From the NCBI GenBank assembly GCA_020629375.1, contig JAHDDK010000005.1, positions 23,910 through 87,909 of the forward strand: a stretch of DNA of 64,000 nucleotides, read 5' to 3'. Origin of the DNA: Acidimicrobiales bacterium. Lineage in GTDB: Bacteria; Actinomycetota; Acidimicrobiia; Acidimicrobiales; SHLQ01. Position 1 is the stretch's first letter; each line of letters opens with the position of its first letter. The position numbers and the translations under genes were made by a program. The notes under the pieces were generated by a model, which saw only the letters and a program-made list of their open reading frames with translations, did not search any database and was not told the DNA's origin. Below are positions 21,700 through 51,325 of this stretch, in pieces.

Positions 21700-24060
21700 T
21701 CAGGCGGACAACTGAACCTCGGAGTCCCTGTCTCGCAACACCTTTACGGCAAGGTCAGTGCGCCTCGACACACCGTGTGCCTTGTACAGCTTGCCGAGCC
21801 GGTTTCGGACCGTGTTCGGGCTGAGGTGCAACTCCGTTGCGATCTCGACGTTGCTGAGCCCTTCGACGACTCCCTGGATGATCGCATCATCGAGATCACT
21901 GGTTTGTTCTCCGCGACGCCTCGGAATCGGCACGTTCTGACATTCGAGTTTCGCCCGAACCTGCTCGGCGAGTTCGTTCTCACCCTGGTCAAGCAAGTCC
22001 ACATAGGTGCTTCGGCATCGCTCGATGTCGTCGTTCCGGAGCATGAGGGTCACGTCACAGGTTCGATAGGCATGGAGGAGACCAGCACGACGGGCGACAT
22101 CACATGCGAGGACCGCGGAGTTGATGCGCTCTTCACATCGGGGCGCGTTGTCGAAGTTCTGCATGAGAAGCACGACCTTCGCCCACGGCCCGAGGTCGGT
22201 TGCCTCGAAGGTGGCGATCGTTCGAAACACCTCGTCAGCAGCATCAAGCTCGCCTGCGCCGAAGAGCCCTTCAGCGATGACCGCTGCTGCCGGGAGCGAA
22301 CGTGGCAGCTCGGCGGCGATGTCGTGCCACAGCTCACCGAGCCCAGCGACATCAGCCGTCGCCCGGAGTCGGAGGGCCGACGCGTAGTACACGAGTGGAG
22401 CGAGCTGCTGGTGAAAGTTGACTGGTTCAATTCCGCAGAAACTCACACCCAGGCGAGCGGACCGGATGGCGTCTGCGACATAGCGGAGGACGTCTGCAAC
22501 TCCGGTTGGATCGGGTTCGTGGTCGACAACAGCGGGAGACGACAGGTCGCCGCCAAGTACGGCGATGAGCTGATCTCCTGCGGAGGCCCATCGGGTCGTG
22601 AGAGCGGAGAACGTCGCCGACTGCCGCAGTGCTTCGGACAACACTGCGGCCTTCCCGATGTCACCTTGCACGGTCGCCTCGATCAATCCGGAGAGTGCCA
22701 ATACCCCCTCACGATCGCTGGGCGCTGGGGGACGCTGGCCCTCCAGCGTCAACGCCAGCTCGCGTAGACCCGGCGGTGTCTCGCTCTCCACCGGTGCTGG
22801 GTGCCGGTCGAGGCGGCGCAGCCCGGTGAGAGCCAGCACGACGTGTCCGAGGTCCGATTGGACATCGAGGTGCGGTGGTACCCGCAGGTTGGCGAGATTG
22901 ACGAGAGCGCACACGTCGTCGGACACGCCTGGCACTCGAGACATCAGCGTGTCGGCCAAGTCCGGCAACAAAGGGGCGACCTGATGGATTGCTTCGAGCA
23001 GAATCTCGTCATCGATCTGGCCGCCCAGACGGCTGAGGCGAGTTGCCGCGCTCTGGAGCATTGTCGTCTCACGCTGTTCAAGCGCTCGAGTGAGCTGCTC
23101 GCAGACCAGTCCGGTCATCAAGGAGCGCTCGTACTCGGATCCGCGGGCGATCACCACGCTGTGGAGGCTTGTGAGCCGGATCTGAATTCCGACGCGATCA
23201 CAGACGCGTACTTCGTTGAGCGTGCCTTGCTTCAGGTGCTTGCGGACGGCTTGGGTCCAGGAGCGTTCGGTGATGGCGAGCAGTTCACAGAGCGGCCCGA
23301 CATCGCTACTGAACACCGGTTGCAAGGTCGCAACTGCGTGAAGGATCGTTTCATCGAGCTCATCGGCATCGATGAAGTCAACGACAGCAGCTGTGAAAGC
23401 GGGATTGGCGAGCAGATCCTTGCCAGCATCGAATCCAGCGGTTACAAGTCTCGGGTTTCCGTTCGTCAGAGACATCAGCGTGCGAATGACGTCGTCCGCG
23501 AGCACGGGCGCTCGTCGAGCAGCCACTTCGATGACCTCATCGAGGGTGAAGTTCTCGAGGACGTGGGTCGACCGCGGACCAGAGAATCGGGCGAGAAGCT
23601 CGGCCAAAACACCCTTTTGTCGACTCGCTGACCGGGAGGCAACGACCATACGCGACGTGACGAGCGGCTTGTTTCGCAGAGTGGCGAGGAGGAAGTCCGT
23701 CGTCGCCTCGTCGAGAAGCTCGATGTCATCGATGATGATGACTCCGTCGGAGTCGAGTGATTCGAAGAGCGCCTGGAGCCCTGCGGACGTGACGGGCCAC
23801 AGTGCATTCGTTTCGCCACCGCGTCCGAAATGCAGATGGCCGTGACGGGCTGTCAGGCGAAGCACCGATAGCCCCAAGGCCTTCGCACGACCGAACGCCC
23901 AGTCGATGATCGCCGACTTGCCTCGGCCTCGCCGACCAGACACAAGCACGATCCCGCCCGAGTCGGAGACCATGCAGCGATCAATATCGGACAGGATCGG
24001 GGCACGACCGACGAGATTGACGGACCCACGTCCATCAACAGTTGCTGCCGTTGCTTCCAT
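21700..24060 (-). CDS. Large ATP-binding LuxR-family (LAL) regulator
   Basis: LVGR, Walker A SGRRGRGKS, Walker B IIIDDIELLD, C-terminal LuxR HTH EGLSNVEIATELHLSPNTVRNRLGKLYKAHGVSRRTDL; alternative start 24147. Confidence 0.88.
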   Translation of the reverse strand: MEATAATVDGRGSVNLVGRAPILSDIDRCMVSDSGGIVLVSGRRGRGKSAIIDWAFGRAKALGLSVLRLTARHGHLHFGRGGETNALWPVTSAGLQALFESLDSDGVIIIDDIELLDEATTDFLLATLRNKPLVTSRMVVASRSASRQKGVLAELLARFSGPRSTHVLENFTLDEVIEVAARRAPVLADDVIRTLMSLTNGNPRLVTAGFDAGKDLLANPAFTAAVVDFIDADELDETILHAVATLQPVFSSDVGPLCELLAITERSWTQAVRKHLKQGTLNEVRVCDRVGIQIRLTSLHSVVIARGSEYERSLMTGLVCEQLTRALEQRETTMLQSAATRLSRLGGQIDDEILLEAIHQVAPLLPDLADTLMSRVPGVSDDVCALVNLANLRVPPHLDVQSDLGHVVLALTGLRRLDRHPAPVESETPPGLRELALTLEGQRPPAPSDREGVLALSGLIEATVQGDIGKAAVLSEALRQSATFSALTTRWASAGDQLIAVLGGDLSSPAVVDHEPDPTGVADVLRYVADAIRSARLGVSFCGIEPVNFHQQLAPLVYYASALRLRATADVAGLGELWHDIAAELPRSLPAAAVIAEGLFGAGELDAADEVFRTIATFEATDLGPWAKVVLLMQNFDNAPRCEERINSAVLACDVARRAGLLHAYRTCDVTLMLRNDDIERCRSTYVDLLDQGENELAEQVRAKLECQNVPIPRRRGEQTSDLDDAIIQGVVEGLSNVEIATELHLSPNTVRNRLGKLYKAHGVSRRTDLAVKVLRDRDSEVQLSA

Positions 24061-24333
24061 TCTGCGACCCTCCAAATCAAACCTGCGCCGTGTTTCACAC
24101 TTGTAACAGCTGTGACGGTGGACACCCAAAGAGGAATGACCGACCACTCTCAGAGACCTGACTCTACTTTCCGTGATACCTCGGTGCTAGAGTCTCACTC
24201 TTCGCGCGATAAGAAAGGGCCACTCAGCCCATGTCGAACGGACCGACTTCTCCCGATCTCTGGTGAGGGATCGAATGGCCCAAAACGGATCAAACTCCGA
24301 CAGGCCGTTCTCACAACCACTCGGCGCTGGTCG

Positions 24334-24819
24334 TCAAAGAACGGCCAGCGACACCCAGATACTGGCCATGCACGACGGCGGAACGATCAGGGAGGGGCCG
24401 AAGGGAAATCGTCTCGACGTCGAACCGCGCACGCGAGCGACACCGGCCTGGATCACGAAGAGTAGGCAGGAGAAGAGCAACGCCCACAAGACCGCCCAGA
24501 TCGACGTTGCGACACTCGGCTGGGTCAAGCCGACGAGCGTTCCGAGTGTCGGGGCGAGCTTGACATCGCCAAACCCGAGATTGCCTGGCGACATCACGTG
24601 AGCGGCTGCGAGGACGCCGGTGAAGGTCGCTGCGCCGACGAGACCAGCGACGGCCATGTCCACATCCCCTCGCAGAAGCAGGGCAAGAAGCACTAGGCCA
24701 GAAACGAACGCAAGGCTGCGAGTCCACCGGTTGGGCAGACGCATCGTACGCGCATCGATGATGCCGACAGCCACGAGGCCGGCGACGAGAACGATCACCC
24801 CCGCAGCCGGGATGATCAC
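24334..24819 (-). CDS. Prepilin peptidase (A24, TadV/CpaA-like)
   Basis: IIDARTMRLPN, LGFGDVKLA, FPFGP; GTGA overlap with upstream gene. Confidence 0.88.
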   Translation of the reverse strand: MIIPAAGVIVLVAGLVAVGIIDARTMRLPNRWTRSLAFVSGLVLLALLLRGDVDMAVAGLVGAATFTGVLAAAHVMSPGNLGFGDVKLAPTLGTLVGLTQPSVATSIWAVLWALLFSCLLFVIQAGVARVRGSTSRRFPFGPSLIVPPSCMASIWVSLAVL

Positions 24820-25118
24820 GAGAAGATGGACAAAACGATCGGGTGAGCGATCAGGCCGACGGTGCCCACGCACGCGGTCAGCAGTGCCACTCGACTCGTC
24901 GTGGAGATTCGTGACGAAATCGGGAGCAGCTCGGGCTCAGGGATCTCCACCTCTTCAATCGGCTTGATGATGCGATATCCGGGGTGATCCTGGCGACGCA
25001 TCGGAGTGCCCTCGCCTGCCCCGACCTCGGCAGTTGGCCGGCTGGTTGGCTGCGCCGCCTCGGTCGTTCGTGGCACCGAAGGGGTCCATGTCACGACAGG
25101 GCGTTCTGAAACGGTCAT
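24816..25118 (-). CDS. Small hypothetical protein with C-terminal TM helix
   Basis: 100 aa; 4-nt start/stop overlaps with both neighbours; VALLTACVGTVGLIAHPIVLSIF. Confidence 0.6.
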   Translation of the reverse strand: MTVSERPVVTWTPSVPRTTEAAQPTSRPTAEVGAGEGTPMRRQDHPGYRIIKPIEEVEIPEPELLPISSRISTTSRVALLTACVGTVGLIAHPIVLSIFS

Positions 25119-25579
25119 GTCATTTGCTCCTTGGGACGAGAGTGACGGAGGTAGTCGACAACCCGCTCAAGCGACCGAAGCGAGTCGTCATCAAGCACGA
25201 TCGACATTCCAGGCGGCGGAAACGCATTGTCGGGTTCGACCCCGGTCGCACGGGCATCGACCGCTGCCAAGAAACTCATCAGATGCAAAAAGTCAGTTCC
25301 GTTGAGGCGAAGCGATGACTGGTCGGCTTCGACATACGCCGGTGGCGCTGGAACAGATGGTGCGGGTTCGGAGCCTGGAACGGTCATCTCCGAGACCACC
25401 CCAGTCTCGTCTTCGTGCGACGGCAAGGTTGGCGGCGCAGGCTGTTGCGCAACAATCCCTTGTAACGCCAGCTGAAGGACATGCGCGACCCGTCGAAGGT
25501 ACTCATCGACCTCTTGTCGGTCGTATCCTCGGCGGCTCGCTTGAAACGTCTTGTCTCGAATTGAATCAGGAGTGATCAT
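25115..25579 (-). CDS. DivIVA-domain protein
   Basis: MITPDSIRDKTFQASRRGYDRQEVDEYL is the DivIVA N-terminal signature. Confidence 0.85.
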   Translation of the reverse strand: MITPDSIRDKTFQASRRGYDRQEVDEYLRRVAHVLQLALQGIVAQQPAPPTLPSHEDETGVVSEMTVPGSEPAPSVPAPPAYVEADQSSLRLNGTDFLHLMSFLAAVDARATGVEPDNAFPPPGMSIVLDDDSLRSLERVVDYLRHSRPKEQMT

Positions 25580-25590: not shown

Positions 25591-26025
25591 CTACTCCTGG
25601 AGCCGTGGGGAGGCCACGGCCTCTGCGGTCAAGTCGAAGGCATCGAATCCAAACAGCGTGACGGTCGTCTCGAGCGTCACCGAGATCTCATCGCCCACAA
25701 CGCTGATGTCCTCGAGAAACACGCCGTCACCTTCAGATTCGTTGAGCCGCAGGTTGTCTAACGCCCATGAGGTCGCCTGCCCCTGGTCGAGCACGAGAGT
25801 TCGGTCGGCGTTGAATTGGTCCAGGTCGATGGCGTTCGCTCCTGCTCGTGCGGCGGCGTCCGCCACCTCATGGATGCGGTGATACTCGGCCTGAATGACC
25901 CACATGTTCACCGCCAACATTCCGAGCGGGACAATCATCAACAACAGGAAGAGTGTCAGCAGTCCAACTGCGCCTCGATCATCAGCGGGGTCAAACGACC
26001 GTGGACGATTCTCTGCCGAACTCAT
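25591..26025 (-). CDS. TadG/TadE-like pseudopilin (Tad domain)
   Basis: DDRGAVG + hydrophobic helix; ADAAARAGA motif. Confidence 0.8.
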   Translation of the reverse strand: MSSAENRPRSFDPADDRGAVGLLTLFLLLMIVPLGMLAVNMWVIQAEYHRIHEVADAAARAGANAIDLDQFNADRTLVLDQGQATSWALDNLRLNESEGDGVFLEDISVVGDEISVTLETTVTLFGFDAFDLTAEAVASPRLQE

Positions 26026-26516
26026 GGGGGATCCTCATCGGTGTCGACCGGGACCGTTCGCACGGCGGGCGTGGCCACACCTCCGTAGTCGGGAATTCGT
26101 TCGTGATAGGTCGCCGTGTAGCTCCGGTTGACGACGGGAAATCCGGGCAGCTCGATGATGGGGAGATCGACCGTCACCCGGACGGTGAAGGGTTCTCCAG
26201 CTGCGGCCTCCGCCCCCTCCGTTTCGACAGTCGAGGTGACCTTGTTGGATCGGCTGTAGCCATCGATTACCCGCTCTGCTTGCTCACGCGCCGCCTCATC
26301 GAGATCGCCGTCTCCTCGGGCAATCGCGTAGCGCGCTGCCTCAGAAGCGGCATTCTCCGCGGCAGCGATTCCCTCGAGCAGCCGGGGCACCTGAAGAAGA
26401 AACCCGATCAGGGGAAGGACAACGATGATCCAGGTGACCATTTCGAGCGTCACAAATCCGCGGTCGTTCTCGGCCGGGCCTCCATCGCAGCTCGGGTTTC
26501 GCCGATGCCGCCTCAC
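26022..26516 (-). CDS. TadE-like pseudopilin
   Basis: NDRGFVTLEMV + TM; AASEAARYA; GTG start overlaps upstream stop, AGGAGG RBS. Confidence 0.8.
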   Translation of the reverse strand: MRRHRRNPSCDGGPAENDRGFVTLEMVTWIIVVLPLIGFLLQVPRLLEGIAAAENAASEAARYAIARGDGDLDEAAREQAERVIDGYSRSNKVTSTVETEGAEAAAGEPFTVRVTVDLPIIELPGFPVVNRSYTATYHERIPDYGGVATPAVRTVPVDTDEDPP

Positions 26517-26956
26517 AGGTCCTCCTTTGTGGCATACACCGTGGTGTCGATTGTCCATTCGAAGAAGCCCCCGTCGAACGGAAGCGCTGAAGCGAGAGAA
26601 CCACTCGCTCGCGCAATCATCAGACCCGATTCCTCATCGAGTTCGCACCGAATCGCAATGGTGGGTCGGTCGCGTTGATCAGGCACCAGGTCATGGAGCC
26701 GAGAGACCGCTGCGGCCTCGCAGTCCCGATCGTCGTTCTCCTCGGCAGCGCCGTGGCGAGCGCCATGGTCAAGGGCATTGCGTAGTGCACCGCTCGTGAA
26801 TTGCATCAAGATGACGTTGACGAGCAACAAGAACGCAAGCAGGACGAAGAAGCCGACCGACACGAACTCCAGTGTCAGGAAGCCTTCGTCGCTGCGCCAC
26901 CGGCGCCGGCTGCGCCAATTGTCTGCAGCCGACGCCGTAGCGAGCCCGCGGTCCAT
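26513..26956 (-). CDS. TadE-like pseudopilin
   Basis: SDEGFLTLEFV + TM; ALDHGARHGA. Confidence 0.8.
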   Translation of the reverse strand: MDRGLATASAADNWRSRRRWRSDEGFLTLEFVSVGFFVLLAFLLLVNVILMQFTSGALRNALDHGARHGAAEENDDRDCEAAAVSRLHDLVPDQRDRPTIAIRCELDEESGLMIARASGSLASALPFDGGFFEWTIDTTVYATKEDL

Positions 26957-26959: not shown

Positions 26960-27130
26960 TCAGGGCAGGTACTGCGTGATCGCGGTCAGGGCGTTGGCAA
27001 TCGAACCGGTCAGTGCGACCGACACGGCGCCGACCAAGCCGATGAGCACGACCGCAAGGCTGGCCCACTCGATGGTGGTGAAGCCTGCGTCACGCTCTTC
27101 GACGGCGCATTCGATGATTTCGTTTTCCAT
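26960..27130 (-). CDS. flp: Flp-type major pilin (56 aa, absent from ORF track)
   Basis: MENEIIECAVEERDAG/FTTIEWASLAVVLIGLVGAVSVALTGSIANALTAITQYLP; GGAGG RBS upstream. Confidence 0.82.
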   Translation of the reverse strand: MENEIIECAVEERDAGFTTIEWASLAVVLIGLVGAVSVALTGSIANALTAITQYLP

Positions 27131-27215: not shown

Positions 27216-28130
27216 CTATCCACCTCCGAACAAGATGAACGGCATTGGCAAAGCGACATAGAGCAGTAGGACCGGAACGAGGAAGATGATGCTGGGCAAC
27301 AGCAGCGCCGCCTTCCGCTTCTCGGCCGCCTGCTTCAGATACTCACGGCGCTCACGGCGCTGGTCGATCGCGAGGGCTCGGAGTTGCGAGGCGAGATCTC
27401 CGCCTGCGGACGCCGCGTTCGCGATCATCCGAAGGAGGCGTGCGAACGATGGCTCGTTCGTTTCTCTCGCAAGCGTTTCGAATGCGCGTCCCGTTGGGGT
27501 CCCTCGTTCGATCCACCCAAGAACCGTGCGGAGCTCGTCGGAGACAACGCCATGGTGACGTTGGCAGATGTGCCGGCAGGCAGCGACTGGCGGCAAGCCT
27601 GCCTCTGACACGCCGGCGATGACCTGCGCCGTGCTGTAGGTCTCGACCTTGATTCGTTCGGCGCGCTTCTCGGCTCGTTCAGCGAGCTTGCTCTTGTATT
27701 GCATGGCGCCCAGGAGGGCACCAAAGAATCCGACGATGACGAGGACGACGATCGACCGTACGCCCAAGAGACCGATCAACGCCGCCAAGATCACGCCACC
27801 GATCGCGGCCCAGCGTGCCTGATGCTCCCGGTAGTTGGCCGCCGAAGGCGACGGAGCTCCGGCACGGCGCATGCGTAAACGCAACTCGTCGTCGGGTGCC
27901 GGGTCGACGAGATCAAACAACGAACGTGCCCATCCGAAGATGACCGCCGAGCTGCCGCGCCTGTTCAGCTGCCCAACGACGCTGCCCGATGATGCAGCAC
28001 CGCTCCGAGCACGGGCAATGGCGAGCTCCGGGCCGAGACGGGATCGAAGCGGGGTCGGGGGACGAACAACACCGAAGACGACGGCACCGACCGAGACGCC
28101 GACGAGCACTGCAGCGAGGACGACGATCAC
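27216..28130 (-). CDS. tadC: TadC-like inner membrane platform protein (T2SS F family)
   Basis: TM pattern, AGLPPVAA, GGDLASQLRALA, C-terminal TM; directly downstream of tadB. Confidence 0.82.
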   Translation of the reverse strand: MIVVLAAVLVGVSVGAVVFGVVRPPTPLRSRLGPELAIARARSGAASSGSVVGQLNRRGSSAVIFGWARSLFDLVDPAPDDELRLRMRRAGAPSPSAANYREHQARWAAIGGVILAALIGLLGVRSIVVLVIVGFFGALLGAMQYKSKLAERAEKRAERIKVETYSTAQVIAGVSEAGLPPVAACRHICQRHHGVVSDELRTVLGWIERGTPTGRAFETLARETNEPSFARLLRMIANAASAGGDLASQLRALAIDQRRERREYLKQAAEKRKAALLLPSIIFLVPVLLLYVALPMPFILFGGG

Positions 28131-32434: not shown

Positions 32435-32450
32435 AGGTACATGTGGACCT
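32435..32450. promoter_or_regulatory. 16-bp palindromic operator, 24 nt upstream of cpaB ATG
   Basis: AGGTAC-atgt-GGACCT. Confidence 0.75.
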
Positions 32451-32535: not shown

Positions 32536-32578
32536 CGCAAGAGACGTCCGCACTATGCGCGTGCAGACGTCTCTTGCG
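32536..32578 (-). terminator. Intrinsic terminator-like hairpin downstream of giant gene A
   Basis: CGCAAGAGACGTC-T-GCAC/GTGC-G-GACGTCTCTTGCG on minus strand: 18-bp stem with one U-G pair, 7-nt loop; no U-tract. Confidence 0.65.
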
Positions 32579-38860: not shown

Positions 38861-38876
38861 CGGTTCATACGTACCG
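38861..38876. promoter_or_regulatory. 16-bp palindromic operator, 24 nt upstream of giant gene A ATG
   Basis: CGGTTC-atac-GTACCG, flanked by GGCCTAA/TTAGGCC. Confidence 0.72.
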
Positions 38877-42000: not shown

Positions 42001-45000
42001 CGCCGATGCCGTGTCCGGCCAAGACGCCAAGATCTGTCTCGAGATCCGTGATCGAAATCCCTCGGGCTCCTTCACCGGTGTCGTAGGTCACGAGCTCGCC
42101 AGCAAAGCCGCCGTCGGTCGAACGAACGGTGGTCGTACGAGCATAGAAATCGAACAGCTCGGTGTTGGTCGGCGGGCGGCCAAGCGCAGCCTCGAGCTCC
42201 TCTGGGGTCGATGGCGGCCCATCCGACGGATCTCCCGACGGGTCCGGCAGGCCAGCCCCCGTACCACCCGAGAAGTTGCCGCCACCTCGGAGAGCGTGGT
42301 CGATCGGATCCCACCACACACCGGGGTCATATCCCCGTGCGATCGTGGCGTCGAGCATGTGATTGTTGGATGCATCGAGGACAACACTCGGGATGAGATC
42401 GGTTGCGGGACCATTCGGCGTGTCCGGCCATCCCAGATCACCGGGAGACAACGTCGCCTCCGTTGAGGCGAATGGCCCTCCGAATACTTGGAATCCGAGT
42501 GCACCGCCAGGACCGTTTGCGTCGGGGTTGGGGTCCCGGAATGCGAGATTGGGTGTGGAGAGAAAGATCTCTTCATCTGTCGGCGCATCGAGACCGAGTC
42601 GAATCGACCCGCGTCGTACAAACGCTCCATCGATGATCTCGCCGTAGTCGATGAGATCGCCCGCACGGTGCCGACTTCCGACATGTGCCTTGATGCTGAT
42701 GTTGAACTCGAAGCGCGTCCCTGCCGGATGATCGTCAAGTTGACCGAGCCGACCGCCCGAGCCGGGCTCGTTCGGCGGCGGAGCATCGTCGCTCTCGATG
42801 TCGAGGTAGGTGCCGACGAACTCCACGTGCTCGTGGCCGGTCACGCCTCCGATGACGTGATCCATCCCCAAACGGCCCTCGACACTGCGCGGCATCGGCA
42901 TCAACACGTTCAAGATCACCCGGTCATTGCCCGCTCCGAGGTCAATGGTGACCCCTTCCGGTCCGATGAAGGTCATGTAGTTGAGCGGGTCGAGATCTGC
43001 GCGGTTGGCGAAGTACGTGAAGTTCTCTGCGTTGAGGTCTCGCCCGACCAGCCGGATTCCTCCGGGTCCCACTTCACGCACGTAGTCTGCAATGAATCGG
43101 TCCATGTCAATGATGTACGTGACATCGACTTCGACGACGTCATCCCCTTCACCTGCGTCGATGTGTGTCTCGGTCGGGGAAGACGGATTGATCGTCTGCT
43201 GGTCAACCGTCTCCCCCTCAGCCTGGACCTCGCGGCCGTTGATCGAAATCACGGAAATGTGGTCGTTCCCACCCTCGGCTTCGATGACGATGTCAGGCAC
43301 CTCGCTCTCTTCGGACCGTTGCGCCGAGTACCCATGGTCGACCTCATACCGAATCGAGTCAGCACCGTCACCGGTCTGGATGATGTCGAAGTTCGCAAGA
43401 TCTTCTTGGTTCACGACATCCCCAGCTCCCGTCGCGATCCGGAACACCTGATCTTTGAGACCGTCGTCGTCGAGTCCGATGTCGACGCCGACGACATAGA
43501 TCCCGTTCGGGTCGTCGTTGCGTCGGAAGCCCGGAGTGCCTTCGGGTACACGGACGCGAATGATCTGATCATCGACGGTGACACGATCACCGTCTTCGTT
43601 CTCATATGTCCTCGATGCACCGATCTCGTCGAGACCGTCGCCGACGTACACGACGCCCGAGCCTTCTGCAGAGATGGAGTCGTTCCCCGCGCCACCGTCG
43701 ATGATGTACTCACCTGAGTCATCAGTGACCGCAACTCTTAGTTCGTCGTCACCCGCGCCGCCGTAGACCGCTGCGTTGTCGATGTCGACCAGACGAACAG
43801 AGTCCGACCCGTCGCCGCCGTCGATGGACACGGTGTCGGCGTTGTCTCCCCTGACGCTGTCGTCCTGACCACCAAGTCGAGCAATGAGCGTGTGTTCCGT
43901 ATCGGCAACATCGATGGACACACCGCCAGGATTCTGGTTCTCTCGCGCATCGAGAACAAAGTCGTCTTCAGTGCCCACGTCGAATCCGTCAACACCGCCG
44001 CGCAAATCGATAACTCCGCTGGCGCCGTCCATCGTGTCGTAGTCCCAGTCGTGCTCGGGTGACTGGTTCTCGAACACGACCTCGCCGTCAATCCGCCCGA
44101 AGAAGTCTGGGCTGTTCGGAGCGAACTCCGACCATGACTCGCGAAAGGCACCGCCGTCGTACCAACTGCGATAGGTGAACCCGAAAGTGACGGTGTCCGA
44201 GGCACGAACCACGGTCGGCCCGGTCGGCCCGAGAGGTGAGTCCTGGTCGACTCCCCAGCCGTCTTCTGGCGGATGGCCAACGACGCCACCGTCAATGTGG
44301 TTGCCACCCTCAATCGGTCGCACGTTGGTGTAGGGCAAACCATCCGGGCCAGTCAGGTCCGGAAGATCTGGGTCGAAGTCTTCATCCTCTTCGTCCCGAG
44401 GACGCACGACAGACGGCAGAACGAAAGGTGGGAGGGTCCCTGAGTTGCCGCCACCACTTGACGATGTCGAACAGGTGACTCCATCACTCGTCACGATCGC
44501 CGGAGTTCGCTCACCACCGTCTACGCAGAAGTACGTCGTGCCATTCGATCCATCCGTTGTCGTGATGATCAACACGTTTGGGTCGCTCGCCGACACGAAC
44601 GGGGTGCATGCGTCATCGATTGGCCCGGTGTAGCCGGCAGGCGCATCGGGACTGCCGTCGGCGTTTGTGCAGTACGAGTAGGGTGCGTTCGACACCGATT
44701 CGCACGTCGGTAGAGGACCCACGCCAAATCCGGGCGTCGTATGTCCACCGGAGTCGATGCACGCCTGAGGCGTCGTCGGCGTGTTCCAGGTGAACGCCTG
44801 TGGCGAGCCGTTCGCGCCCACGCGGGCAAGAGGTGCGACCGCCGTCGGGAGCGCAGCATCGACTCCGACCGACGCCGAGGCGACGGGCGTTTCGATCTCT
44901 GCCAAACCGTTCACCGAAAGCGTGAGCACATCGACGGTCGTCGACGCCGGGAAGGTTGGGCCGTCGACCGCAATCTCGTCCACGACGTCATCGCATGTTC

Positions 45001-45658
45001 CGACGAGCGATTCGAAGGTCGCCTGTTGCTCGACAGTCAGCGGCGAGTCACCGTCCTCGTTCAGCGCAGCCTCGTACGCTGCGCACGCAGCTGGCGCTGG
45101 CGTGGTCTGCGTCAAGGTCGAGCTCCCAAAGGTCGCGACGGCAGAGACTTCGGTGGCGCCACCCTCGCCGAAGATGATCTCGACACGCTCTCCGAAGGAC
45201 CGCTCGGTTCCGCCTCCGTCAGCGAAGTAGGCGCCTGCCGGCAACTGCCACACGACGGAATCGACGGTTGCCGATCCGGCAATCGCAACACCGCTGACTT
45301 CGTCGTCGATGGCGATGGTGCCAGAACCGTCGAGCCAGAACGACACCGCAGAGCCGACCAATACCCCTTCACCGCTGGAGTCAGAGTTGAGCGAGAACTG
45401 CGCTGCGCCAAACATGGCCGCTTCGCCGTCCTCAAGGGTCTCCGTGCTCGCCACACCGGGCGATTCGAAGTCGTCTGCGCTGTCGAGCGCCAACAGCTCG
45501 ACGAGTTCGGCAATGTCATCGTCGGTCACGTCGACGTCGCCCTCCGTCTCCTGCGCAATGGCGACCGAAGAGTTCAACCCGAAGAGGACGATGAGCAATG
45601 ACGCCATCGCACATGAGGCGGCCATCGGTCGGATGAGGGGCGAGTACCTGCTATTCAT
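39008..45658 (-). CDS. Giant secreted protein B (2216 aa) with RTX-like Ca-binding repeats and helical C-terminus
   Basis: Signal peptide ending ...SSVAIA-Q; DGGDGSDSV, YGGAGDDEL, DGGAGNDSI, AGEGDDVV, LGAGNDRV. Confidence 0.85.
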   Translation of the reverse strand: MNSRYSPLIRPMAASCAMASLLIVLFGLNSSVAIAQETEGDVDVTDDDIAELVELLALDSADDFESPGVASTETLEDGEAAMFGAAQFSLNSDSSGEGVLVGSAVSFWLDGSGTIAIDDEVSGVAIAGSATVDSVVWQLPAGAYFADGGGTERSFGERVEIIFGEGGATEVSAVATFGSSTLTQTTPAPAACAAYEAALNEDGDSPLTVEQQATFESLVGTCDDVVDEIAVDGPTFPASTTVDVLTLSVNGLAEIETPVASASVGVDAALPTAVAPLARVGANGSPQAFTWNTPTTPQACIDSGGHTTPGFGVGPLPTCESVSNAPYSYCTNADGSPDAPAGYTGPIDDACTPFVSASDPNVLIITTTDGSNGTTYFCVDGGERTPAIVTSDGVTCSTSSSGGGNSGTLPPFVLPSVVRPRDEEDEDFDPDLPDLTGPDGLPYTNVRPIEGGNHIDGGVVGHPPEDGWGVDQDSPLGPTGPTVVRASDTVTFGFTYRSWYDGGAFRESWSEFAPNSPDFFGRIDGEVVFENQSPEHDWDYDTMDGASGVIDLRGGVDGFDVGTEDDFVLDARENQNPGGVSIDVADTEHTLIARLGGQDDSVRGDNADTVSIDGGDGSDSVRLVDIDNAAVYGGAGDDELRVAVTDDSGEYIIDGGAGNDSISAEGSGVVYVGDGLDEIGASRTYENEDGDRVTVDDQIIRVRVPEGTPGFRRNDDPNGIYVVGVDIGLDDDGLKDQVFRIATGAGDVVNQEDLANFDIIQTGDGADSIRYEVDHGYSAQRSEESEVPDIVIEAEGGNDHISVISINGREVQAEGETVDQQTINPSSPTETHIDAGEGDDVVEVDVTYIIDMDRFIADYVREVGPGGIRLVGRDLNAENFTYFANRADLDPLNYMTFIGPEGVTIDLGAGNDRVILNVLMPMPRSVEGRLGMDHVIGGVTGHEHVEFVGTYLDIESDDAPPPNEPGSGGRLGQLDDHPAGTRFEFNISIKAHVGSRHRAGDLIDYGEIIDGAFVRRGSIRLGLDAPTDEEIFLSTPNLAFRDPNPDANGPGGALGFQVFGGPFASTEATLSPGDLGWPDTPNGPATDLIPSVVLDASNNHMLDATIARGYDPGVWWDPIDHALRGGGNFSGGTGAGLPDPSGDPSDGPPSTPEELEAALGRPPTNTELFDFYARTTTVRSTDGGFAGELVTYDTGEGARGISITDLETDLGVLAGHGIGGALLRNTSPDAVRFTATFWNGEEREVTVLPGQGWQFGPGHQYVPVELGVTQRHGDGMLVATSISDLSPIHLYSNPNYSDEEFGDTYYGNRTGMVRLPDEGQVTFTPPGGILGIEETSLVVETTSNLFIDDLRSQDIHDSTETAHHLFGFPAVRHVEAVLLPIGPGSFNSLVNAGRDPFAPYDYDEISAAAVPHADYNPLPRESVARLFTRRDAEGRMIHEIEIARFDRLEDDDAAYQQSQLRTAGGDLYRYTKTTYSLNEFHHDYIDLADPTGETLNREIWDYHALGSDLTELELRQRRLQLEAEIDEITASMESLEGPFGQPGGRLDRSDWLRLRRERNDLMAEYLRLEKPFYDELVTGVVAGIHGLDSYEESELVDAFGANLDERGGRIVTDLTQNGLQSLLYGATTRFQRYGAGLMPSGSVGVDGVNALPFSWPATMSNNAGRGDMISLAEGADTSAPGWDSDARAIFNRPRWEIEEMRESNDLITQLRGELAYNNRRMQDNSLPQTERLAARSAFWTVSGQLFEAMGAVGALGQVDPGVSRGGQIAKNLFDATQRMSKVSELGNLRQWVGLTAEANRIAAQNQTIARNAEANSASFRAAIVAANTNAHAKKLEITALERELTDWVGEMYERGHRSEHAQLTNQILADNAQLSNVREQREADIAAYQAQVARIDETYGDTLSQWESRRDLARTIVETSRSDTSSAGSMQFRLARALEDEAIMNDLIRRGNAIAGAVEHRMNTEADPAVARAIGLRLEDHSVLTPITNPFTGEEVLIPNPTIAAVAALPDGATPDAQTGEYSIYSVQFHDDMLGAPRPVRPTVAFPDFSIEAALAPEIAYVESQISTRLNAIDSAIDSPAVDAAVSRTVDQMHQYVADSDWDGLASLEAQLDGEPLGTRFASQIEAELRAQATADGYADTEWFGFVLETLDRVESDLNTAFRDYAQLHQLSAAYGDLEAYMFATNDAFLNDAWNEMIGANGAASNFRLVDTVPKN

Positions 45659-45683: not shown

Positions 45684-45745
45684 CGGTACGTTCGGACCGA
45701 AATGACAGGTATCTAGGTGCCGACGCAATAGGTACATGTACGCAT
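45684..45745. promoter_or_regulatory. Operator array (three sites, 23-bp period); proximal site 25 nt upstream of giant gene B ATG
   Basis: CGGTAC-gttc-GGACCG (45684), AGGTAT-ctag-GTGCCG (45707), AGGTAC-atgt-acgcat half-site (45730). Confidence 0.72.
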
Positions 45746-45903: not shown

Positions 45904-48900
45904 CTACGAGCTCGGCGGTCTCGCAGCGTCGGGCGAGTCCGGAATGAACCTCAGACCCTCATCCCAGACGAAGTCTGCCTGTCCAATCCGGATTCGGAAC
46001 TCGTCTTCTGCGGAATAGGTTTCCGTATAGAGGTTGGGATGCCCCCAGCCGTACGCGACATCGAAGTTGCCGTGTAAGAGAATGTTGGCAGCGAAGGCTG
46101 ATAGTCCGCCGGCAGTCAGAAGCGAAAGGTCGGGGGCAGGGCCGTTGGCGAAGTCTCCGAGAATCACCGGTCCTGCGAGTGCGGATCCGACGGTACCCAC
46201 ACCATGCAGGGCGAGACCCGTGCCAATTCGCCGGGCAATCGGGTTCGAAACGATGTTTGTGTTGAATCCAGAGATTCCGCCGAGATACGGGTTGTCCTCG
46301 AGTTCTTCTTGAGTGTGGTTGACGTCGTTCGCTGGGCCGTTGAGCGAGAACGCTCCTGCGTAGTAGCCACCCCTGTGCAGAAAGGGCGAGGCGAAGTTGA
46401 CTGCCGTGACCAGCTTGGCCATCGCAGTCACCTGCCCATTCCCCGTGTTGAGGATGACGGAGAGTTCGGTGCCCGTCTGCACCGGACCAATCGCCGGAAA
46501 GCTGAACCGCGCAGATGACCGCAACGGGGAGTCCTGGTTCACGCTGGCGACGATGAGCGGCGGCTTTCCAGAGGGCAGCAGTCGACGGAACGGGTCGGTG
46601 GCGTTCTTGTCGAGGGGCAACGCGACCGTGATGCTGACACCCTGATACGCACCAGTGATCGCGAGCACGTCGGGGTGGGTGATGTCGACCAGCGCTGTTT
46701 CGAACTGTCGCTCAACATTGCTCACGAGCTCATCTCGGTTCGACCAGGTAAGGTCCATGACCGTGTCGACGGTCTCGTCGAGATCATCGCCGATCCAGTC
46801 CCTCACGGGGCTGTCGAACATCGCCGTCGCTACATGAAGTTCATTGAGCATGTTGTCCAACGGTGGGCGGTGTTCGACTTGACCAACAACCTGGTTTCGG
46901 GTCGGCAGGCTCCCCTGGATCGCAAGCTGGTCAACTCCGGGACCGGGCGGGTTCTCACGAACGAACTCGATGTTTCCTCGATGGGCGGCCTCGTGTTGCC
47001 GCGCCGCGAAGAGATCCATGTTCTCAGGATCTCCGAGCAGCGAGATCCCCGCTCCGATGTCAAGTCGATCGATGGAGTCAATTTCTTCGGTCGTGAACCA
47101 CGACGAACCTCCTACTGCCTGCTGCAAAAGGCCTTCGGCGTCCGTCCGGCCGTATGCACGCGTCCGGGCAGCGTTCTGCAAATCTGGGTCGTCGAGCAAA
47201 GAGATGTCCGCAACGAAGCTCCGGAAGTCATCAAAGTCGCTCTGCTCACGCCACAGGACGTCGACCGGGTCGAATATCTCGCCGAGATCTCCCGTCCACG
47301 ATCCGATATCGGTTGTGACATGCAGCGGCCGAGCGTCGAGAACGTCACCTGGCTCGTAGTCGTCGGGGAGGACGTCGGTGATCACGTACTCGAAGTTCGT
47401 GCCGTTGAGTTCGGCACGGAGGAGTTTCGTGCCACCGAAACCGTCAACTGCCGTCGTCAGAGCCTTGAAGCCTCCGCTTTCGTCCAGGGCAACAGAAACC
47501 TTCTGATCCTTGTGCGGCGCGAAGGTGAACGCTCCCGAGCCGTAGTCCTGTGGAAGCCCGGTCTCGGGCGTCTGCCACTCAATAACCCGCGATCCGCCCT
47601 CGATTGAGACGACGTTCTCCGTCCGATCTCCAAGATCGATCGGCCCGACCACGCGGACATCCGCATCGGGGGACATCAACCGTGGCGCAAAGTCGGTCCC
47701 TGGCAGATCGGCGAGAATCATGGTGTCGCCCGCAAGCAGTGTCTCACCTCCGACGACCGCGGCGTGGCGTTCTGCCGGGTAGGCCATCTCCCAACCTTCA
47801 CCGGGCTGAAGCGTGACGACTTCCTTCGTGTCGTTCCAGTGGGTCACCCGGAAAGTCAGCGGCTCGTCATGTTGATTTCGCAGCGTTGCGCCCGTCAGTC
47901 CTCGGTCGGCGAGATTCTCGAAGTTTCGTGGGGTGAGGAGCAGTGGATGATTGGCCGATTCACGCCACGTCGGCTCATGGGCGGCTCTCTGTTCGTTGCT
48001 CTCGAGATACAGCGCCTCGCCGTCGAACAGCACGCGATCTCGTGTATCGCCCCACGCCTCGATGCCCGTGTGGCGAACAAGCCAGTCGAAGCGATCGCTC
48101 GGCGTGATATCCGCGCCTCCGCTGACGTCCTCGAGGCGCTGGTTGAACTCGGTCCAAGACGTCCCGCCTGAGCCCGACCCAGTACCTCGACTTGCGCCAT
48201 TCCATAGCGGTAGGTCGGTGATCGACGGGGACCCTCCACCGGTTGGCGGCGAAGACGACGCCGGTGGAGTTGGTTCGTTCATGCCAGGCCCAAGATCGGG
48301 TGCGCTGCCAAGCCGTACCTCCCCAGGATCGAGACCCCACGTCGAGGTGACCTCGTGGGTCACCCCAGTTTGTGGGTCGACAGTCGTCATATCGGTGAAG
48401 AACAACTCGAACGCAATGTTCTGATCTGACGGATTGCGAAAGGCGATTCGATCCGGGTTCTCGACAACGATCGACGTTCGAGTATCCGCCCACTGAAAGA
48501 TCCGCCGACGGCCACGAAAGATGAACTCGCCATCGTCGTTCAGCTCGCCAACATCGACGAACGCTTCGTTTCGGGCCGTTGGGTCATTGGCGTACTCGAC
48601 TGCAGTGGGGCCTGCGGCCTTGACGCGGAATCGGTACGTCCAGCCGTCGTTGAGGTCCGGCGCATTCGAGTTGTAGCCCGTGTAGTGAGCACCTGAACCA
48701 CCGTGATCCTCACCACTGACGCCGGGAGACGTCGGCGACGCTGGAGGGTCGTCGGGTACGGGAATCCATTCGGCGACAATCTCCAGGTTCTCGAACCCGA
48801 GCACCGTTCCGACATCCACAGTGTCTTCGAGATCGCCCACCCCCAGAACCGTGTTCTCCGGTAGTGGGTTGAGGACGTTGAGTACGATCGTGTCGCCATC

Positions 48901-51285
48901 ACCGGCTCCACCATCGATGGCTCCGGTGCTGGGCAACACCCACTTGAGGTACTCCGCTGGCTGAAGCTCGGCTTCAGCCCCCCAGTACGCGAATTCGTAC
49001 ACGTCGAACTCATCGGGTAGTTGATGAGACGTGATGTCTCGGACATCTCGGACGAACCGGTCCCACTCGACCTCGTACACCGCATCGACAGTGACACGGT
49101 CGTTGTCCAACCCGGCTTGCAGTTCGAACGGGCGCTCTTCGACCAGGTCATCTCGCTCGACCCAGTCCCCCGACTGGTCGACTTGTCGACCACGGCTGGA
49201 GATGAACGCTATTGCATCAGCCCCTAGGCCCGAGTCGATCTCCATACCCCCATTGGTCTCCGTGCCAAAGCGCGCATCCACGACCACTGAATCATCCGCG
49301 ACACCGCCAAGAATCAGCTCAGTGATGTCGTCTGACCCGTTCGGGTTGAGGAGCCGGTCGCCATCGGACGTGATGATCGTGGACCATCCCTCGGTGTCTT
49401 CGTCGAAGCCGACAGAGACGTCGATTGGCATGCCACTCTCGACATGAACTTCGATGACCTCGCCATCGGCATCGACGGTGTCTTCTCCCGCGCCGATGAT
49501 CGCCCGGTGGACGCCATCATTGTTCGCGCCGTGTCCTTGGAACCGAACCGTGTCATCTCCCCGGCCACCAATGAATGTCCCGAAGTCAAGTTCGGCGGTA
49601 TCGTCGCCATCTCCGCCGAGCACGACGGCATTTCGGTCCTCGGTAAACTCCGCCCGGCCCCAGTACTGGCCGTGGCCACCGCGCGCGGTGATGGAGTCGT
49701 TGCCGTCGCCTGCGGCGATTGTTGATGACGTGAGATGTCCAAGCGACGCTGTGTCGTCACCGCCTCCGAGATCGACGATCCCGTGGCTCACATTGCCTTG
49801 CCAGTCGAGATCGACGTTCGTGTCGTCGAACCGCAGGACTCCGTCGTCGAGATAGTCGTAGGTACTGAGGATGACGGCGGTGCCTGACACGTCCAGCCAC
49901 AGCGAGTCAGGATCCAAGGCGCCAAAGTCGACCGGGGTCTCTGAGACAAATCGAATGCGGCCTGCGAATGTGTAGAGGAAGGCCTGTTCCTCAACTGAGA
50001 GCGCGTCGCCCAGGGTCGTTCCGTTGTCCAGACGGAGGTCGAGCGTCAGCGTGTCGGTCGGCCAGCTCGCACCGAGATGGAGGAATCGGTTCTCCCGGTG
50101 TTCGGCTTCACGGTCGATGATGACTTCGAAGTCCACACCACTCGTCGGCGGGACAACTCGAGTCGTCAGGACACCATCGCCATTGAGGAACGTGTCACCG
50201 CCCCCTCCGTTTGATCCCTCGCCGCTGTCTCCATCGCCGCCACCACCGTTGCCGCTGTCACCGTCGTCGCCGTCACCGTCGCCAGATCCATCATCGATGA
50301 TGACGACGAGCTCGTCATCATCATCCTCGTTGAGCACAACGGTCGGCAGGTCGGGAACCGGAACCGTCGAACCACTTGGCGAACCCCCGGACCCACCTGG
50401 TGTTCCACTGACGAGCGGAAATGCAGCCGCACCGGGGATGATCAGGCCCTCGGGGGCAGCCGGTCCCATGACGCCTGCGGGCAACACCTCTCCACCGCGA
50501 GGAATAACGGTCGAGGGAACGAACACACCGGTCACGGGTCGTTGTGCTGGCGTCTGTGACTCGGGCTGGCCTGTGGGCGCCACTGCCACGACGGTGAAAC
50601 TCAAACGTCCGACCTCGTAGCCGTCTGCTCGATCGGAGCCAGCGAGTAAGACCGCAGTGACGCTCTGACCCGCCAACGCGTCAACGATCAGGGCACCATT
50701 TCCAACACGGGTGCCAAGCTCCGTATCGTCGCTCGTCCGGACCTCCAACCAAACGTCGACTCCCGGACCGGTTACGTCGGGACCAGGGACGCCGCTGACG
50801 ACGAGCTCGATCTGACCAGCAAGCACGGTCCCGCTGCACCCGCAGGACGTGGCAACACCTGCGTCGAGCAACGCCGTGACCAGGTCTGCGCCGCCAAGCG
50901 GGACAACATCACACCCGCCAGCAACCAACACGCCTTCATCCATCCAGACACATTCGGCACCGACCGGTGGTGTGGCGATCGTGACGCCGGCAGGCGGTAC
51001 CAGCTCACATGTCGCAGGATCTTGGGGAATGGAGACCGAGTCAGCACCAACCATGACGCACGGGCTGTCTGCGATGGCCGTGGACACTGCCCTCGGCGAG
51101 GGACCAACGGCTGTTCGGATCTCCAACGCGATGTCGTCTTCGTGATCAGCGGAAGGATCGGCCTCCACGAGCGCACCTGCGGCGGAGACACCCGCGATCA
51201 AACCAGCGGCGCACAACGAAATGCCAATCCCGCCAAAGCGTCGCACGACTGTCCACTGCGTCGACCGAACCTGCATGTAGCCCAT
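45904..51285 (-). CDS. Giant secreted protein C (1793 aa) with RTX-like Ca-binding repeats and distinct C-terminus
   Basis: Signal peptide ending ...GVSAAGA; LGGGDDTA, AGDGNDSI, GGDGDDTA, GGRGDDTV, DGGAGDGDTIVLNVL. Confidence 0.85.
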   Translation of the reverse strand: MGYMQVRSTQWTVVRRFGGIGISLCAAGLIAGVSAAGALVEADPSADHEDDIALEIRTAVGPSPRAVSTAIADSPCVMVGADSVSIPQDPATCELVPPAGVTIATPPVGAECVWMDEGVLVAGGCDVVPLGGADLVTALLDAGVATSCGCSGTVLAGQIELVVSGVPGPDVTGPGVDVWLEVRTSDDTELGTRVGNGALIVDALAGQSVTAVLLAGSDRADGYEVGRLSFTVVAVAPTGQPESQTPAQRPVTGVFVPSTVIPRGGEVLPAGVMGPAAPEGLIIPGAAAFPLVSGTPGGSGGSPSGSTVPVPDLPTVVLNEDDDDELVVIIDDGSGDGDGDDGDSGNGGGGDGDSGEGSNGGGGDTFLNGDGVLTTRVVPPTSGVDFEVIIDREAEHRENRFLHLGASWPTDTLTLDLRLDNGTTLGDALSVEEQAFLYTFAGRIRFVSETPVDFGALDPDSLWLDVSGTAVILSTYDYLDDGVLRFDDTNVDLDWQGNVSHGIVDLGGGDDTASLGHLTSSTIAAGDGNDSITARGGHGQYWGRAEFTEDRNAVVLGGDGDDTAELDFGTFIGGRGDDTVRFQGHGANNDGVHRAIIGAGEDTVDADGEVIEVHVESGMPIDVSVGFDEDTEGWSTIITSDGDRLLNPNGSDDITELILGGVADDSVVVDARFGTETNGGMEIDSGLGADAIAFISSRGRQVDQSGDWVERDDLVEERPFELQAGLDNDRVTVDAVYEVEWDRFVRDVRDITSHQLPDEFDVYEFAYWGAEAELQPAEYLKWVLPSTGAIDGGAGDGDTIVLNVLNPLPENTVLGVGDLEDTVDVGTVLGFENLEIVAEWIPVPDDPPASPTSPGVSGEDHGGSGAHYTGYNSNAPDLNDGWTYRFRVKAAGPTAVEYANDPTARNEAFVDVGELNDDGEFIFRGRRRIFQWADTRTSIVVENPDRIAFRNPSDQNIAFELFFTDMTTVDPQTGVTHEVTSTWGLDPGEVRLGSAPDLGPGMNEPTPPASSSPPTGGGSPSITDLPLWNGASRGTGSGSGGTSWTEFNQRLEDVSGGADITPSDRFDWLVRHTGIEAWGDTRDRVLFDGEALYLESNEQRAAHEPTWRESANHPLLLTPRNFENLADRGLTGATLRNQHDEPLTFRVTHWNDTKEVVTLQPGEGWEMAYPAERHAAVVGGETLLAGDTMILADLPGTDFAPRLMSPDADVRVVGPIDLGDRTENVVSIEGGSRVIEWQTPETGLPQDYGSGAFTFAPHKDQKVSVALDESGGFKALTTAVDGFGGTKLLRAELNGTNFEYVITDVLPDDYEPGDVLDARPLHVTTDIGSWTGDLGEIFDPVDVLWREQSDFDDFRSFVADISLLDDPDLQNAARTRAYGRTDAEGLLQQAVGGSSWFTTEEIDSIDRLDIGAGISLLGDPENMDLFAARQHEAAHRGNIEFVRENPPGPGVDQLAIQGSLPTRNQVVGQVEHRPPLDNMLNELHVATAMFDSPVRDWIGDDLDETVDTVMDLTWSNRDELVSNVERQFETALVDITHPDVLAITGAYQGVSITVALPLDKNATDPFRRLLPSGKPPLIVASVNQDSPLRSSARFSFPAIGPVQTGTELSVILNTGNGQVTAMAKLVTAVNFASPFLHRGGYYAGAFSLNGPANDVNHTQEELEDNPYLGGISGFNTNIVSNPIARRIGTGLALHGVGTVGSALAGPVILGDFANGPAPDLSLLTAGGLSAFAANILLHGNFDVAYGWGHPNLYTETYSAEDEFRIRIGQADFVWDEGLRFIPDSPDAARPPSS

Positions 51286-51309
51286 GTCACATCTTTAGGG
51301 CAGGCCGAA

Positions 51310-51325
51310 AGGTACGAATGTACCT
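51310..51325. promoter_or_regulatory. 16-bp palindromic operator, 24 nt upstream of giant gene C ATG
   Basis: AGGTAC-gaat-GTACCT (perfect arms). Confidence 0.78.

Follow-up and report, generated by a model that had tools for sequence, protein, structure and literature searches.

Giant secreted proteins and a Tad/Flp pilus operon share a palindromic promoter element in an actinobacterial genome

The DNA considered here is a stretch of 64,000 nucleotides (nt), hereafter the window, from the assembly of an Acidimicrobiales bacterium (GCA_020629375.1, contig JAHDDK010000005.1, positions 23,910 to 87,909 of the forward strand). Positions 21,700 to 51,325 of the window hold a locus whose genes are all on the minus strand: three genes for giant secreted proteins, named C, B and A in the order in which they are read, followed by 13 smaller genes that occupy 32410 to 21700. 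The latter consist of a tightly packed operon for a pilus of the Tad/Flp kind (32410 down to 24334) and, after a gap of 273 nt, the gene of a LAL-type regulator. An earlier note, made from the sequence alone, had described this gene order and common strand, and the coordinates of the open reading frames (ORFs) bear it out. Here we report that the palindromic promoter element of this locus also precedes two further giant genes elsewhere in the same genome, and we discuss how the resulting set of genes might work.

Giants C, B and A comprise 1793, 2216 and 2062 residues, and are encoded at 45904..51285, 39008..45658 and 32648..38836, respectively. Giant C consists of a signal peptide, an N-terminal Cys-bearing module, weak RTX-like repeats, a core shared with the other two, and a C-terminal region of 600 residues that is unique to it. 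Giant A likewise has a signal peptide, the N-terminal module, RTX-like repeats and the core, followed by a C-terminal third of about 760 residues that is mainly helical in a low-confidence structural model; giant B is a paralog of A. That the three are paralogs, as previously proposed, is confirmed by the identity between A and B (33% over 1873 residues) and between A and C (26% over the 631 residues of the core, with two shorter blocks in addition). Of the core motifs given at the time, i.e., VDVTY.ID, LDPL.Y and RVILNVL.P, A and B have all three, whereas C has degenerate forms. The gaps that follow the three genes, of 171-245 nt, are gene-free.

Each of the four units of the locus is preceded, on the same strand, by a palindrome of the form GGTAC-N4-GTACC. 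That of giant C is perfect (GGTACattcGTACC, 51311..51324) and lies 25 nt before the ATG. Those of giant B (GGTCCgaacGTACC, 45685..45698), giant A (GGTACgtatGAACC, 38862..38875) and the first gene of the tad operon (GGTCCacatGTACC, 32436..32449) have one mismatch each, and lie 26, 25 and 25 nt before the respective ATGs; that is, the claim of an identical distance in all four cases is accurate to within 1 nt. At giant A the sequences on either side of the palindrome, CCTAA...TTAGG, also pair, so that the inverted repeat there spans about 28 bp. Additional palindrome-like sequences are found upstream of giant B, namely GGTATCTAGGTGCC (45708-45721, two mismatches) and GTACATGTAC (~45732-45741), and several binding sites may exist in this promoter region.

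To judge how specific this element is, we used 100 shuffles of the window as the background, and the reversed pattern as a control for the genome. Seven sites with at most one mismatch occur in the window, compared with a mean of 0.45 in the shuffles, none of which reached seven. The whole genome (4.41 Mb) contains 55 such sites as against 159 for the reversed pattern; words of the GGTAC-N4-GTACC type are thus avoided in this genome, being about three times rarer than the control. Only five sites in the genome are perfect, and in three of these the ATG of a giant gene follows at exactly 25 nt: that of giant C and those of two further giants, D (2602 residues, contig C46:6114-13961) and E (2030 residues, contig C66:112900-119031). 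For 8 of the 55 sites, an ORF of 80 codons or more starts with an ATG 25-26 nt downstream; these are the sites of the six units (the tad operon and giants A to E), one site internal to giant A, and one before an unrelated ORF of 287 residues. Among the 34 ORFs of at least 1500 residues that mechanical calling yields in the genome, the five giants are the only ones with a site at this spacing. A position matrix derived from the six sites gives scores of 27-36 bits for them and no more than 18.5 bits elsewhere, a gap that is inflated by the six being the training set.

The shared cis-element therefore marks all four units and two more giant genes, and very little else in the genome. This result upholds the single regulon envisaged in the earlier note, and strongly favours one regulon for all units as far as sequence can tell. 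The extension to the genes of D and E is new here, and makes the observation stronger than it was at first. We consider it very probable that the giants and the tad operon constitute a co-regulated module.

Some other occurrences of the palindrome deserve mention. The site within giant A (window 38541-38554, one mismatch) is 25 nt before an in-frame ATG at residue 108; it may be there by chance, or may belong to an internal start giving a form without signal peptide. A 4719-residue SdrD/DUF11 adhesin encoded on contig C46 has a one-mismatch site 43 nt upstream of its gene, for which membership in the regulon is not claimed. On contig C89, a one-mismatch palindrome at 13454-13467 lies 45 nt before an ORF starting at 13513, which encodes a 429-residue secreted protein with an HExxH motif and is preceded by a normal Shine-Dalgarno sequence; this protein may be an extra member of the regulon.

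None of the six units has a Shine-Dalgarno sequence at its start, whereas within the operon such a sequence (GGAGG or AGGAG) precedes flp, tadC and the small gene. Canonical signal peptides result when translation begins at the ATGs spaced 25-26 nt from the site; automatic gene calls (2038 and 2205 residues) cut them short. Because a Shine-Dalgarno sequence is missing at all six starts, the mRNAs of all six units are probably leaderless, with the site of the regulator over the -35 region. Leaderless mRNAs are common in actinobacteria. A promoter scan found no sigma-70-like promoter in 32300-51500, and terminator-like sites were no more numerous than in shuffled sequence. One terminator-like hairpin, with a perfect stem of 18 bp, is located 70 nt after the stop codon of giant A (32536..32578, minus strand), i.e., between giant A and the tad promoter. 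We also considered the motif as a promoter for a sigma factor of the extracytoplasmic-function (ECF) type, and rejected this idea, since the half-sites are only 4 nt apart.

Taken together, these features point to the palindrome being a DNA operator for a dimeric regulator, putatively centred 32-33 bp before the start of a leaderless transcript. Alternatively, the element might act in the RNA, as a 5-bp hairpin in a 5' leader that stands 25 nt before the AUG and controls translation or stability; the fixed distance to the start codon, and a 4-nt center that varies as a loop would, are what one would expect in that case. However, the three of the six sites that are imperfect have the same base pair of the stem altered, on one side only and with no compensating change. 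In addition, the flanks of 3 to 4 of the six sites are similar in a symmetric, outward fashion (CTAA...TTAG), as expected of a DNA operator, and no Shine-Dalgarno sequence follows the element. Because of the one-sided changes and the symmetric flanks we favour an operator in the DNA, and deem a hairpin in the RNA very improbable.

Our best guess for the protein that binds this operator is the LAL-type regulator at the end of the locus (21700..24147, minus strand). Like other proteins of the LAL (MalT) type, it combines an N-terminal P-loop NTPase with a C-terminal LuxR/GerE-type helix-turn-helix (HTH) domain. GerE is matched with an E-value of 1.4e-6 (28.3 bits, cut-off 23.5); AAA_16 falls below its cut-off (E 1.7e-4, 22.6 bits versus 32.6), and the Walker A motif, GRRGRGKS, was recognized by eye. 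Translation probably starts at the ATG at 24060, which GGAGGG precedes, and the protein then has 786 residues; many LALs are longer. By position, an equal candidate would be a 367-residue protein encoded convergently with LAL (20581..21684, plus strand), which has weak matches to HTH domains of the TetR/IclR type at residues 209-235, and a second HTH, nearer the N-terminus, that is seen by eye only. The genome encodes two paralogs of LAL, of which one (contig C6) contains an internal TGA. The other, on contig C46 (the contig that also carries giant D), is 26-29% identical to LAL over nearly its full length, and adjoins a paralog of the 367-residue protein; the two lie at C46:46489-49999.

It is conceivable that some other regulator than LAL uses the palindrome as its operator, e.g., the 367-residue protein acting as a repressor over the -35 region, and that LAL controls something else or acts further upstream. 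A site at about -32 from the putative start would suit a repressor, the 367-residue protein has the TetR/IclR-type matches and a paralog, next to the LAL paralog, that matches TetR_N (E 5.8e-5), and a perfect palindrome also covers the start of another regulator gene. This site, GGTACAGATGTACC (window 55747-55760), overlaps the first ATG of an RpiR-family gene (54848-55753, minus strand), in the divergent gap between that gene and a DAO/GCV_T dehydrogenase gene, with a spacing that differs from that of the giants. On the other hand, dimers of LuxR/GerE-type HTH domains commonly bind inverted repeats, and of the regulators only LAL has a gene that is transcribed in line with those of the pilus. 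We regard a regulator other than LAL as possible but unlikely, and retain LAL as the best candidate.

The tad operon, like the rest of the locus, reads along the minus strand. It begins with a CpaB/RcpC-like protein of 271 residues with one N-terminal transmembrane helix (31595..32410), followed by a protein of up to 464 residues in the TadZ/CpaE position (30273..31667), which lacks a family match and in which a degenerate ParA/MinD-like P-loop region is apparent by eye only. The earlier designations of these two genes as cpaB and cpaE-like derive from position and topology: there is no Pfam or NCBIfam match at E<=0.1, and SAF matches the first protein at a sub-threshold E of 0.17. The TadA/CpaF-type ATPase comes next (439 residues, 28963..30282; T2SSE, E 1.2e-22, 80.6 bits versus a cut-off of 24.9), and then two platform proteins, one TadB-like (28127..29083) and one TadC-like (27216..28130; T2SSF, E 2.4e-16). 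The TadB-like protein matches T2SSF below the cut-off (E 0.0049, 17.3 bits), and shares 32-36% identity with the TadB proteins encoded next to related tadA genes.

The pilin genes follow. The putative Flp-type pilin (56 residues, 26960..27130) has a processing motif, AG/FTTIEW, identified by eye, a GGAGG Shine-Dalgarno sequence, and a match to DUF4244 below the cut-off (E 0.027). Two TadE/TadF-like minor pilins (26513..26956, with G/FLTLEF, and 26022..26558, with G/FVTLEM) were likewise recognized from their motifs by eye, with sub-threshold TadF/TadE matches only. A TadG-like minor pilin of 144 residues (25591..26025) matches PF13400 with E 1.1e-5 (26.1 bits, cut-off 22.3). The operon is completed by a 154-residue protein with a DivIVA domain in its N-terminal 35 residues (25115..25579; E 3.2e-7), a small protein of 100 residues with a C-terminal transmembrane helix and no family match (24816..25118), and a prepilin peptidase of the TadV/CpaA type (24334..24873; Peptidase_A24, E 1e-10). 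With a TadA ATPase, two TadB/TadC platform proteins, a prepilin peptidase and TadE/F/G pseudopilins, the operon is, judged by its genes, of the Tad/Flp kind, in a strongly divergent form of the monoderm actinobacterial type.

A genome scan identifies the host as an actinobacterium by its 10 WhiB genes and by the lack of a secretin. That the locus has no secretin had been noted, and indeed PF00263 is not matched anywhere in the 87.6%-complete genome. The reported lack of a type I secretion system in the window is also borne out, in that no ABC/HlyD-type export gene was found among the 22 flanking window proteins scanned. The genome contains five genes for TadA-like ATPases; the TadA of the locus is about 33% identical to the four others, and to the copies common to the genus. 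Its best relative, with 55% identity, is on a 3.5-kb contig of an unclassified Actinomycetota genome. The next, with 43%, is from a genome of the same order, and is the highest among the 40 related genomes that we searched, i.e., 24 of the same genus and 16 of the same order. That same-order locus includes tadB, tadC and a weak cpaE-like match, and there is no giant ORF near its tadA. A scan of metagenome contigs for TadA returned nothing close.

The five giants have masses of 190-270 kDa and together account for about 32 kb of coding sequence. They are strongly acidic (net charge -189 to -271), and have Cys residues in the N-terminal part only or none at all. Sec-type signal peptides had been predicted for those of the locus, and we find them as well, as judged by eye and with a hydrophobicity scan. 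Self-BLAST (E<=0.01) shows no internal repeats in any of the five, their C-termini carry no LPXTG-type sortase signal or other wall anchor, and none has a prepilin motif (G/xxxxE). No Pfam family, including HemolysinCabind, is matched in A, B or C at E<=0.1, and no Pfam domain is found in the five at E<=0.01; Pfam, NCBIfam and PDB sequence searches of the giants gave nothing significant. In line with the earlier interpretation, the giants belong to no characterized family, and a profile of the A/B/C core matched only those three proteins.

The description of these proteins as RTX-like in the earlier note, by contrast, is weak. There are 0-5 loose GGxGxD-like motifs per giant (2-5 in A to C), and the matches to RTX blocks are weak, with an E of 0.02 for the best PDB sequence and of 0.095 for NCBIfam. 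Recognition against the Atlas gave a best score of 0.77, at the level of noise, between giant C and HemolysinCabind clusters, and no usable match for the C-terminus of giant A. A fold search with the low-confidence model of the core yielded only Z-scores below 8, the best being 6.6 to an RTX block, with carbohydrate-binding modules, lectins and pilin-like sandwiches at 4-5.

The lack of homologs and the low Atlas scores might raise the suspicion that the frames are not real genes, but chance frames in GC-rich DNA or artefacts of assembly. Several observations argue against this notion. The frames are open over 5.4-7.8 kb, and the GC contents of the three codon positions follow the coding pattern GC1 > GC2 < GC3, as they do in all genes of the locus. 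The encoded proteins are paralogous, with 24-33% identity over more than 1000 residues, and have canonical signal peptides and a shared promoter element. Furthermore, the stretch is complete in contigs of three DNA runs (from one sample of one study, labelled as an algae metagenome), which are the only runs listed as containing it, with no RNA run among them. We thus give this suspicion almost no credence, and take the giants to be genuine genes.

Relatives of the giants were sought widely. A profile of the core of A, B and C was matched by three proteins among 1.84 billion representatives, all of them self. Word-based searches of 5.8 billion proteins with residues 700-1300 of A, 313-1296 of E and 1195-1793 of C also returned only self; such searches reach proteins of similar length, and relatives that share exact words. 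Giants A and E have no match in the 40 related genomes, where LAL is not matched either (at E<=1e-10). A profile of the A/B C-terminus has no match in 400 other genomes of the phylum, and in the same number of genomes a profile of the N-terminal module has a single marginal one (E 6e-4), which we take to be due to chance. The genome with the closest TadA does not match the giant core. Because LAL and the giants are missing from the 40 relatives, and TadA is only distantly represented there, the data fit a module acquired or expanded in this lineage. The test suggested in the earlier note, linkage of core homologs to tad genes, points in two directions: in these searches A, B and C occur nowhere else, and D and E share the promoter element and the N-terminal module but have no tad neighbour.

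Giants D and E constitute a second family, with 24% identity over 1136 residues. Homology between their bodies and those of A, B and C was rejected (hhalign probability 0.8%). A relationship does exist, nevertheless, in the ~140 residues that follow the signal peptide: an alignment of A/C with D/E over 139 columns has an hhalign probability of 91.5% and an E-value of 8.6e-7, and is further backed by a Cys pattern and a closing P(T/V)GQP that both pairs have. This N-terminal module is found in four of the five giants, i.e., A, C, D and E. A further idea is that the Tad machine, besides being an adhesive pilus, is a device for export or display of the giants in a monoderm, with the module as a docking signal, and that it carries or pushes them through the actinobacterial wall to a contacted cell. 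A predicted complex of the module with the three minor pilins scored 0.01, which is no evidence either way. We consider this idea improbable. If true, it would describe a Gram-positive functional counterpart of type II secretion, whose orphan effectors are under a single type of LAL-controlled leaderless promoter.

Two genes near giant D are worth recording. Divergent from it (C46:599-5914, minus strand) is the gene for a protein of 1771 residues in which, by eye, a DNA-binding domain of the SARP type is joined to a Ser/Thr kinase, an NTPase and a beta-propeller; this gene adjoins one for an ECF-type sigma factor.

Based on these results we propose the following explanation. A dimeric HTH regulator, for which LAL is the best candidate, would recognize the 14-bp palindrome, or about 28 bp if the flanks are counted, whose center is 32-33 bp upstream of the start codon, and thereby switch six units together, namely the tad operon and the genes of the five giants. 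A divergent Tad/Flp pilus would then be made, probably directed to a cell pole, because the operon includes a gene with a DivIVA domain. Concurrently, the five acidic, non-repetitive giants would be exported by Sec; they are probably calcium-binding, and would fold with calcium outside the cell. In this contact programme the pilus would attach the cell to a target surface, possibly that of an algal or bacterial cell, which we consider because the DNA may stem from an algae-associated sample, and the giants would then serve as effectors or adhesins on that surface. Gene layout, paralogy, the cis-element at its fixed spacing and the fruitless searches for relatives of the giants are observed directly; the leaderless transcription, the identity of the regulator, the calcium-dependent extracellular state and the function of the giants are the parts of this scheme that we infer. 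To the explanation as a whole, including function, i.e., a co-regulated contact programme of pilus and giants, we assign a probability of roughly 0.4.

The surroundings of the locus are as follows. Its flanks consist of genes of ordinary metabolism. The GC3 of the locus genes, giants included, is 0.59-0.81, and so is mostly lower than that of the housekeeping flanks (0.78-0.90). The window contains no tRNA genes and no flanking repeats, and beyond the lower GC3 there is no sign of the boundary of an island. Directly to the left of the locus, at 14993-20470, are surface-polysaccharide genes, encoding a PGA_cap protein, a family-2 glycosyltransferase (GT2) and a GH26 protein with an Excalibur calcium-binding domain. 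The sample label is a weak hint at habitat only: algae-associated material may be the source of the DNA.

These surroundings also bear on a different view of the giants, according to which they are structural proteins of the surface or matrix, i.e., calcium-stabilized adhesins or a coat for life on algal surfaces, without toxic or lytic activity, that are made together with the pilus and serve attachment and biofilm formation. Consistent with this view are the very acidic, Gly/Asp-rich composition with GGxGxD-like motifs, the weak resemblances to beta-rolls and beta-sandwiches of the low-confidence core model, the exopolysaccharide genes on the left flank and, as a weak hint, the algae label of the runs that contain the DNA. 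By contrast, the giants have no tandem repeats, whereas the conventional 4719-residue adhesin of the same genome has 11 SdrD_B and 7 DUF11 stretches; nor do they have an LPXTG-type end or other wall anchor. They also include long helical and Gly-rich hydrophobic stretches (as far as a low-confidence model can indicate), which are unusual for stalk-type adhesins. A purely structural role is therefore doubtful in our opinion, albeit far from negligible, and we prefer the contact programme described above.

A number of points weigh against that proposal, however. All results derive from one metagenome-assembled genome of 4.41 Mb, 87.6% complete. With regard to regulation, the 273-nt region upstream of the LAL gene has no palindrome, a site whose center falls near -32 is equally typical of repressors and of activators of the LuxR type, and the palindrome is not exclusive to the giants and the pilus, because a perfect one lies at the start of the RpiR-type gene. 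D and E are encoded away from any tad locus, and the coupling of giants and pilus is for this reason regulatory at most. The N-terminal module is not detectable in giant B, and hidden Markov models built from A and C did not retrieve D or E, nor did those from D and E retrieve A or C. With regard to function, we identified neither an enzymatic domain nor one of a toxin in A, B and C, and no immunity-like gene follows any of the giants, those after D and E having domains of the housekeeping type. By eye, a GxSxG...DDP...H (Ser-Asp-His) pattern can be made out at the C-terminal ends of D and E, but neither PDB nor Pfam supports it. Lastly, AlphaFold2 gave a pLDDT of 49 for the core and of 40.7 for the A/B C-terminus, from shallow alignments, and both models are unreliable.

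It remains to compare this locus with known systems. Tad/Flp loci of actinobacteria include that of the Rv3654c-Rv3660c type and those of Micrococcus luteus and Bifidobacterium. Gene set and order match those seen here, with a gene in the TadZ position, tadA, tadB, tadC, a putative flp, TadE/F/G-like genes and a prepilin peptidase, and without a secretin. Here, however, TadA is very divergent (~33% identical to the other copies of the genome and to those of the genus), several components are below Pfam thresholds, genes for a DivIVA-domain protein and LAL are added, and three giants share the promoter element. Tad pili are usually regarded as simple adhesive fibres, and partners are known in only a few bacteria. 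If the link between pilus and giants is functional, the locus would provide a defined set of genes for the engagement of another cell or an algal surface by an actinobacterium. Independently of function, the six near-identical promoter layouts would offer a natural system for the study of regulator-dependent leaderless transcription.

The giants themselves were set against several known classes, and fit none of them. RTX proteins are similarly acidic and Gly/Asp-rich, and the giants share with them a few GGxGxD-like motifs and weak matches to RTX blocks; yet HemolysinCabind is not matched, an N-terminal Sec signal is found instead of a C-terminal type I signal, there is no ABC/MFP exporter among the 22 flanking proteins scanned, and the host is a monoderm. 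Polymorphic toxin systems feature a trafficking domain, a C-terminal toxin domain and an adjacent immunity gene. A shared N-terminal module followed by differing bodies and C-termini is reminiscent of them, but we found no toxin domain, adjacent immunity gene, detectable exchange of cassettes or known trafficking domain. Fibrillar adhesins of the stalk type were also rejected, in this case because all five giants lack internal repeats and an LPXTG-type end.

The earlier note knew of no described equivalent, a statement that is too strong in view of two systems from other bacteria, although our literature search turned up no paper in which giants are tied to a Tad operon of an actinobacterium through a LAL-linked promoter element. 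One such system is the Kil apparatus of Myxococcus xanthus, a Tad-like pilus for contact-dependent killing (PMC12075869). Kil resembles the present locus in that a Tad-type pilus is specialized for cell contact and variable large proteins confer specificity. There, however, the variable parts are the minor pilin tips KilL/M/N, which have prepilin signals, whereas the giants have Sec-type signals and no prepilin motif; Kil also works with a complex similar to a type III secretion system in a diderm, and its tip genes are described as restricted to Myxococcota (PMC12075869). An assignment of the locus to predatory Tad systems of the Kil type was rejected on the nature of the giants, which are not pilins.

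The other system, that of Omnitrophota, is in our assessment the nearest precedent in layout. In these bacteria giant genes are preceded by loci of the type II secretion/rcpC type, and roles in attachment and in attack on other cells have been proposed (bioRxiv 10.1101/2023.11.21.568195). As in the present case, giant secreted proteins are located beside a multi-gene machine that belongs to the type IV filament superfamily, and small genes for proteins with class-III signal peptides are nearby. Omnitrophota differ in being another phylum, diderm and with a gspD secretin; their giants are far larger and have recognizable domains, and the part of the report that we could consult mentions neither a shared palindrome nor a LAL regulator. 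In a search with the core profile, we detected no sequence relation to the giants described here. Judged from its sequence, then, this actinobacterial locus is a Tad system with probably co-regulated giant exoproteins, which holds new protein families; should the link prove functional, it would be a monoderm example of giant proteins paired with machines of the type IV filament superfamily.

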